Source of the DNA: Octopus vulgaris
Lineage: Eukaryota
DNA: 64,000 bases
Reading direction: 5' to 3'
Assembly (NCBI GenBank): GCA_951406725.2
Contig: OX597819.1
Span: 45,756,001 to 45,820,000, forward strand
Shown here: positions 7,453 to 7,559 of the stretch, one piece after another
Layout: each line of letters begins with the position of its first letter
Position numbering within the stretch: the stretch's first letter is position 1
The notes under the pieces: model-generated
Seen by the model: only the letters and a program-made list of their open reading frames with translations
Databases searched by the model: none
Told to the model about the DNA's origin: nothing
Made by a program: the position numbers and the translations under genes

Positions 7453-7559
7453 ATTTCTTACTGATGAATCTAATGGCCTATGGTAGATTGGCTTGATTTA
7501 ATTTAATCAGGTTAGTTTTCCATTAAACTGAAGATGAAACGGTGCATCGTCTAAGAAAT
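7453..7559 (+). ncRNA. Type I hammerhead ribozyme, predicted cleavage after GUC 7551
   Basis: Stem I ATTTCTTA(7453-60)/TAAGAAAT(7552-59); CTGATGA(7461-67); stem II ATCT/AGAT(7532-35); GAAA; stem III ACGGT-GC-ATCGT; GUC. Confidence 0.85.

Follow-up and report, generated by a model that had tools for sequence, protein, structure and literature searches.

What kind of ribozyme is encoded by a 107-nt stretch of octopus DNA whose stem II alone takes up 68 nt, does it work with one catalytic core or two, and what has spread it through the genome? We analysed the stretch within its window, i.e. the whole 64-kb piece of DNA under study, C6:45,756,001-45,820,000 in a microsatellite-rich host genome of 2.8 Gb. 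The explanation that we favour, with good confidence, is a type I hammerhead with one core and a long stem II, predicted to be unbranched, borne on a high-copy non-coding tandem repeat, for which cutting as a double hammerhead and copying by the enzyme of a Penelope-like element (PLE) are likely.

The repeat array and its genomic family

Six direct copies of the hammerhead stand in a tandem array, and the first of them is the flagged 107 nt. The direct arm (7321..10157, + strand) consists of 5.7 head-to-tail units of 493-496 bp each, holds further hammerheads at 7949-8055, 8445-8551, 8941-9047, 9434-9540 and 9927-10033 (all +), and ends at unit position 363, the short 3' end. Back to back with it lies an inverted arm of about one unit (6780..7304, − strand), which ends at unit position 472, the long 3' end, and brings the hammerhead motifs in the window to seven (7117-7011, −). 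Between the two fixed 3' ends lies a 109-nt 'tail' (unit 364-472), seen in the first unit at 7684..7792 (+). The target flank is (TA)n-rich on the left (6553..6782) and (TA)n on the right (10156..10216), with no strand assigned to either. No ORF of at least 120 aa is found inside 7321-10156, and the RT + GIY-YIG ORF of an autonomous PLE is absent there. The initial annotation had located the hammerhead correctly; the 496-bp tandem array and the inverted arm went unmentioned.

Along the array, the base at 7474 and in the corresponding copies (7970, 8466, 8962, 9455, 9948) alternates T,G,T,G,T,G. This alternation may reflect a multimeric circular template, local duplication or an assembly effect. 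In two other arrays (L188 and L281) some variants recur with period 3 and others are non-periodic; no clean signature of a circle emerges from the periodicity within arrays. Elsewhere in the window, a 709-aa open frame with RVT_1 and zf-RVT matches (48756-50885, +) marks a non-LTR retrotransposon unrelated to the hammerhead array, and a C-terminal fragment similar to this frame lies at 28433-28858 (−). The window also contains an inverted pair of 622 nt (27666-28287 and 51181-51802; 98%, 23 kb apart) and a palindrome with 252-nt arms and a 12-nt spacer (29367-29882).

A genome search for the pattern core-spacer(45-75)-GAAAC-stem III gave 3,100 matches against 0 in a reversed control, and all 100 matches listed of the 3,100 resemble the same family. 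Identity falls from 99% to about 72% across its subfamilies, whose units measure 474-497 bp. Because many rows of our alignment came from core-bearing patterns, a core-free pattern was chosen as well. It returned 2,598 matches, and CUGANGA is kept in 99 of the 100 listed, among which neighbouring array copies are not independent. By hand count, N7 in the listed copies is T in 48, A in 30, C in 13 and G in 9. When contigs of four public runs are compared, core variants at a level of at least 5% are confined to N7 and H17 (C to A); H17 is C in 23 and A in 18 of 41 aligned variants. Such a strict core, with a free N7 and C or A at H17 across subfamilies, argues that the chemistry at the site is under selection. 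The contigs carry the family; that the runs are RNA is a guess, and presence in them is no proof of transcription. A fecal RNA run (X20) yielded one 208-nt contig, from which no inference is drawn.

Architecture of the hammerhead and its long stem II

Sequence, a constrained fold and pair counts identify the first direct copy (7453..7559, +) as a type I hammerhead with a predicted cut after C7551 (GUC): CUGANGA, GAAA and NUH occur in order together with three covarying helices, and the ends lie in stem I. The 5' strand of stem I (7453..7460, +) would pair with the 3' strand (7552..7559, +) of its own unit or, in a dimer, of the neighbouring unit; its 8 bp are 96.6% paired in the 41 variants, with double changes in 5/8 pairs. 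Core residues C3-A9 (7461..7467, +) read CUGAUGA, in which the freely varying N7 is 7465. Beyond stem II, with GAAAC at 7536-7540, the segment 7536..7551 (+) comprises the GAA-A core, a self-complementary 12-nt stem III (7539-7550) and H17 (7551; C or A in relatives).

Folding and pair counts in the 41 variants divide stem II (7468..7535, +) into a 4-bp basal helix ATCT/AGAT (7468-7471/7532-7535) that encloses exactly 60 nt (7472-7531), an 8x8 internal loop (7472-7479/7524-7531), a 4-bp helix (7480-7483/7520-7523), a 14-bp rod (7485-7498/7505-7518) set off from that helix by a mismatch in the constrained fold, and a 6-nt apical loop (7499-7504). The 60-nt insert, the CUGAAGA before GAAAC and the near-palindromic stem III of the initial annotation are all present, letter for letter, where it had put them. 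With the core held open, the insert is a single rod in all 13 folds listed within 2 kcal/mol. The spacer measures 64-69 nt in 41/41 genomic variants, in which the unbranched rod insert is 98.2% paired.

The single-core unbranched structure as a whole is 96.8% paired, with both sides changed in 10/35 pairs. Its covariation figure is 0.213; shuffles give 0.149 and slid registers no more than 0.071. The 41 variants are related, so that pair counts overstate independent events, and the figure is not a probability. These 41 were aligned out of 68 distinct genomic strings, leaving aside reverse-strand matches to the near-palindromic anchor, truncated or chimeric copies, one unrelated match and several near-duplicates. 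The ATCT/AGAT pairing proposed for stem II is borne out by this comparison: in the core-anchored alignment, positions 2, 3 and 4 pair in 40, 41 and 41 of the 41 variants and position 5 in 34, with compensatory changes at positions 2-5 (U-A/G-C, C-G/U-A, U-A/G-C and A-U/G-C/U-A, respectively). Position 1, the 10.1-11.1 pair, is A-U in 25 variants, G-U in 5, unpaired in 11 and never G-C, for which reason activity should be lower. Unaided, RNAalifold recovered stems I and III and 11 bp of the rod; it did not recover the basal helix of stem II, where the aligner had placed gaps. Twelve of the 18 rod pairs vary solely by G-U/Watson-Crick exchange, which points to RNA of the + strand. The variants show, at the level of sequence, that the long rod is kept under selection for pairing.

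A terminal loop 2 is missing from its usual position, which is taken by a conserved internal loop whose bases CCU and UAA are 95-100% conserved in the 41 variants. Our best guess is that this loop and the apex form a putative tertiary or protein contact. A pseudoknot between CCU (7477-7479) and AGG (7563-7565), noticed by eye, was discarded as unsupported: AGG appears paired in a local downstream hairpin, and covariation is absent because both triplets are nearly invariant.

The initial annotation had also pictured a branched insert, a second nested core and a switch through an AAUCUA/UAGAUU hairpin. We regard this model as scarcely credible. All its letters are present, and hammerheads lacking helix II can cleave very slowly, according to the available part of bioRxiv 10.1101/2024.05.16.594327; for this reason the nested core was judged by its missing stem I and its rarity. 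The CTGAAGA (7528..7534, +), one base before GAAAC, has 1 bp of possible stem I. Against 3,100 family matches, it has 23 copies in the genome, spread over 12 places and including 7 in the window, and it is present in 2/41 aligned variants; relatives read CAGAAGA, CAGUAGA, CGGUAGA, CAGCAGA and others at this site, and T7529 is replaced in nearly all the contig depth of two other organisms. The motif appears, from these sequences, to be the product of two substitutions of recent date, and one of the two also disrupts the fifth stem II pair. It shares bases with the internal loop and with stem II's 3' strand and is best described as a non-functional look-alike.

The hairpins of that model fare no better. 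The supposed branch AGTTT/AAACT overlaps the 3' strand of the rod at 7514-7518, has a pair probability of 0.0 and is 70.8% paired with zero double changes in the 41 variants. The competing AATCTA/TAGATT hairpin has a pairing probability of 0.0 both in the 107-mer and in the whole unit, and the covariation of branch and switch hairpins together is at shuffle level (398/500 shuffles as high, 41 variants), which leaves conformational switching by this route unsupported. A different competitor, GGCUAUU/AAUGGCC (7449-7455/7472-7478), dominates the fold of the flagged unit; it is not a conserved switch, because all 7 pairs form in 1/41 variants.

Known relatives and probable cleavage as a dimer

The suspicion that short-stem searches would miss this family proved correct. 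Rfam gave 0 matches in the window at gathering thresholds, so no hammerhead reached its threshold there, and none of the 8 Rfam matches at E up to 10 (580 bases) belongs to a hammerhead family. The published minimal descriptor (PMC4209133, as far as available) limits loop 2 to 10 nt and allows an extra base before G12. Among such elements we found no natural type I stem II measuring 60-70 nt in the mainly open full-text literature apart from supplements, of which those of PMC7229834, PMC8557442, PMC3088659 and bioRxiv 10.64898/2026.07.22.740005 may hold such cases, nor the same long stem II in the legible rows of the 56-motif alignment of PMC4209133. The available parts of other papers describe eight Naiad 'half cores' 35-50 nt apart (PMC8557442), a Clec2 hammerhead with long insertions (PMC6765202), and variants with U-U at the base of helix II or an extra base (PMC7229834, PMC4209133). 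The loose 10.1-11.1 pair and the palindromic stem III are already published.

The canonical metazoan hammerheads in the available part of PMC4209133 have a 4-bp helix and a small loop where stem II is 64-69 nt here. Like the present motif, the PLE-associated hammerheads of the same paper are type I, have a palindromic stem III and a helix II longer than usual, and carry an extra base after A9; the extra base that the descriptor allows before G12 gives the loose 10.1-11.1 a precedent. Their helix II is 3-8 bp with loops below about 10 nt in the legible rows, whereas 60 nt are enclosed here; G10.1-C11.1, typical of them, is absent here, and stem III here is a 12-nt palindrome. The repeat also resembles the metazoan non-LTR retrozymes, which in the available parts of PMC7229834 and bioRxiv 10.64898/2026.07.22.740005 are non-coding low-G+C tandem repeats a few hundred bp long with one type I hammerhead per unit and PLEs as proposed mover. 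Axolotl retrozymes (PMC7229834) share the dimer-type stem III, and the base of helix II in their Amex2 is a mismatched U-U. At sequence level the present family has what defines a retrozyme, namely tandem non-coding units with a type I hammerhead, dispersed in multiple copies. Its units of 474-497 bp compare with 170-400 nt in the 2020 paper and 51-972 bp in the preprint, and its two-armed, two-ended footprint is not described in the available text of either.

A second, unrelated non-coding and TA-targeted family was met in the same genome (L139:447-540 on C1, about 183,008,780, and L191-L205; 1,872 first-look candidates). Its hammerhead motif is of type I, G-C closes the 59-nt stem II, and the stem III loop is a palindromic GAUC. 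The family also seems to end at either of two 3' positions, about 100 nt from each other.

Dependence of cleavage on a dimer, raised as a possibility by the initial annotation, is likely on modelling grounds. All subfamilies seen, those with the loop change UGCA to UAUA among them, keep a self-complementary stem III 12-mer, and in the first direct copy the energy of this 12-mer is −0.1 kcal/mol as a hairpin and −17.5 kcal/mol as a self-duplex. Of 21 natural two-unit folds from 11 loci, 20 give the double hammerhead greater stability than two monomers. When folding is free, the energy minimum is a complete hybrid hammerhead for 8 of the 21 two-unit stretches and some other structure for the remaining 13. 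An inter-unit stem III duplex occurs in all 21 free minimum-energy folds, as expected of any tandem palindrome. In its single-unit context the flagged copy folds away from the hammerhead, stems I-III having a probability of 0.0. Since the palindrome is kept and the double hammerhead is favoured in 20/21 folds, we consider cleavage as a double hammerhead between neighbouring units likely; a dimer model has been published for PLE hammerheads (PMC4209133) and for the axolotl (PMC7229834), in the parts of these papers available.

Insertion anatomy, spread and meaning

Insertions were scored in 102 complete cases found with hammerhead-bearing queries (the window and loci L001-L080, L161-L170, L174-L190 and L226-L285); the divergent-subfamily loci L081-L100 were looked at separately and are outside this count. 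Of 168 3' ends, 160 adjoin TA repeats. Among the two-armed back-to-back insertions, 57/66 have ends at unit 345-380 and 455-485, 9/66 have one end elsewhere and 0/66 have two alike ends, and the 36 one-armed insertions divide into 18 short and 18 long 3' ends. About one unit is held by 39 of the 102. The 5' ends are scattered over the unit. Within 20 nt after the predicted cut we counted 13/188 against 7.6 expected (p 0.046, uncorrected), none exactly at the cut; 5' truncation at the cut site, a weak enrichment lacking a sharp peak, is not counted as support. A further cluster of 5' ends lies at unit 426-450 (22/188).

The footprint, one short and one long 3' end, is Penelope-like, and the family has the traits of a non-autonomous PLE: inverted and tandem anatomy, tail, 5' truncation and a microsatellite target. 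The available part of PMC8557442 counts arms that are inverted and truncated, tails and a bias towards (TA)n among the traits of PLEs. EN+ PLEs (Poseidon PAc, PMC11167929; Neptune/Naiad, PMC8557442; both in part) likewise show an inverted 5'-truncated arm, tandem copies, an optional 3' tail, AT-rich or (TA)n targets and two RT start sites. Their tail is 30-40, whereas here it is 109 nt and there is no ORF. For the anole PLE in vitro, the available text of PMC11167929 reports that the tail spans the distance from one RT start site to the other and that both strands are nicked; PAc in vitro shows no strand difference in start site, whereas the two ends here are split one per arm. From the two fixed ends and this precedent we infer priming on both target strands from sites 109 nt apart. 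Hairpins at 7650-7671 and 7736-7775 are kept across subfamilies, each ~12-17 nt before a fixed 3' end, and are candidate RT docking sites.

PLEs that could supply an enzyme are present in this genome: their open RT + GIY-YIG ORFs are 781 aa long, their terminal repeats measure 456 bp, and they have TA flanks. A full-length example (L171:430-5672; C16:20,834,929-20,840,171) has the 781-aa ORF with a CxxC linker, an upstream 359-aa ORF and its 456-bp terminal repeats in a TA tract; 781-aa copies are many genome-wide, and a pattern search found no standard hammerhead in this element. Another PLE family (L218:2237, −; L222:2156, −; L211) carries a short-armed hammerhead motif in its 3' region, about 430-480 nt after the stop codon; U-U forms the base of stem II in this motif, and its stem III is palindromic. 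No autonomous partner sharing unit sequence or pLTR was found in 53 PLE-neighbourhood loci, 150 of 6,136 GIY-YIG candidates having been scored. Units near PLE ORFs (L133, L190/L225) were rejected as partners and look like separate insertions into TA tracts.

How far do other explanations account for these data? The fold may be selected as a hammerhead that cleaves very slowly or with the help of a protein, multimeric transcripts remaining uncut and no circle stage being passed. We give this a minor yet real share of the probability. A weak A+U basal helix, a mismatch-prone 10.1-11.1 and the lack of a 5'-end peak at the cut all suit it, and it has precedents: the anole PLE hammerhead requires a protein and is dispensable for insertion (PMC11167929, in the available part), and 8/9 Xenopus retrozyme dimers showed no cleavage in vitro in published work. 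However, the strict core, free N7 and C/A H17 persist down to about 72% identity, which argues for selected site chemistry, and this explanation differs from ours only in rate and timing. It is unlikely that the hammerhead acts as a monomer, a tertiary contact of the long arm offsetting the weak stem III. Stem III can form 4 bp, its hairpins reach −1.0 to −2.9 kcal/mol in some subfamilies, the CCU and UAA that might make such a contact are nearly invariant, and 39 of the 102 insertions hold about one unit, but the stem III loop stays palindromic through the change from UGCA to UAUA, and in the two-unit set monomer hammerhead folds cost 6-17 kcal/mol over the free minimum.

It is very improbable, nearly as much so as the switch model, that recombination at the DNA level has spread the repeat as a satellite whose ribozyme is a relic. 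Some variants common to adjacent array units do fit local duplication. However, short arrays dispersed on many chromosomes, with fixed 3' and scattered 5' ends, inverted arms and TA targets, are not what such a satellite would leave. We retain the single-core hammerhead on a protein-free repeat of thousands of copies, likely moved by Penelope-type jumping genes.

In the mechanism that we propose, the array would be transcribed on the + strand. The palindromic stem III strands of two units are predicted to pair into 12 bp while the stems I swap, and each core would cut after GUC or GUA, freeing ~490-nt monomers that may be circularised, as in other retrozymes. A Penelope-type RT/GIY-YIG protein would, as the insertion anatomy suggests, nick both strands of a (TA)n tract. 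For each strand, reverse transcription would start at its own fixed RNA site, the two sites being separated by 109 nt, and run across several units, and the outcome would be back-to-back arms with one short and one long end. More speculatively, and with a minor share of the probability, long-armed hammerheads may be an architecture that recurs, as yet uncatalogued, in Penelope parasites. The rod would then be a functional module, either a tertiary platform or a place where the PLE protein docks, and would have evolved more than once, as the unrelated family with the 59-nt stem II may indicate; the end rule would mark a dimeric PLE enzyme that primes the two target strands from different fixed RNA sites, perhaps around a circle.

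What was oddest in the original claim, the nested-core switch, is absent. The genomic hammerheads themselves are missed by Rfam and by the minimal descriptor, so that animal repeats likely contain more ribozymes than have been counted, and some Penelope-like families on record as hammerhead-free may deserve re-examination. Penelope copying of protein-free RNA is a link that the retrozyme papers have proposed but not shown mechanistically, and the fixed paired ends found here are a clean trace of how Penelope-type enzymes would copy such RNA.
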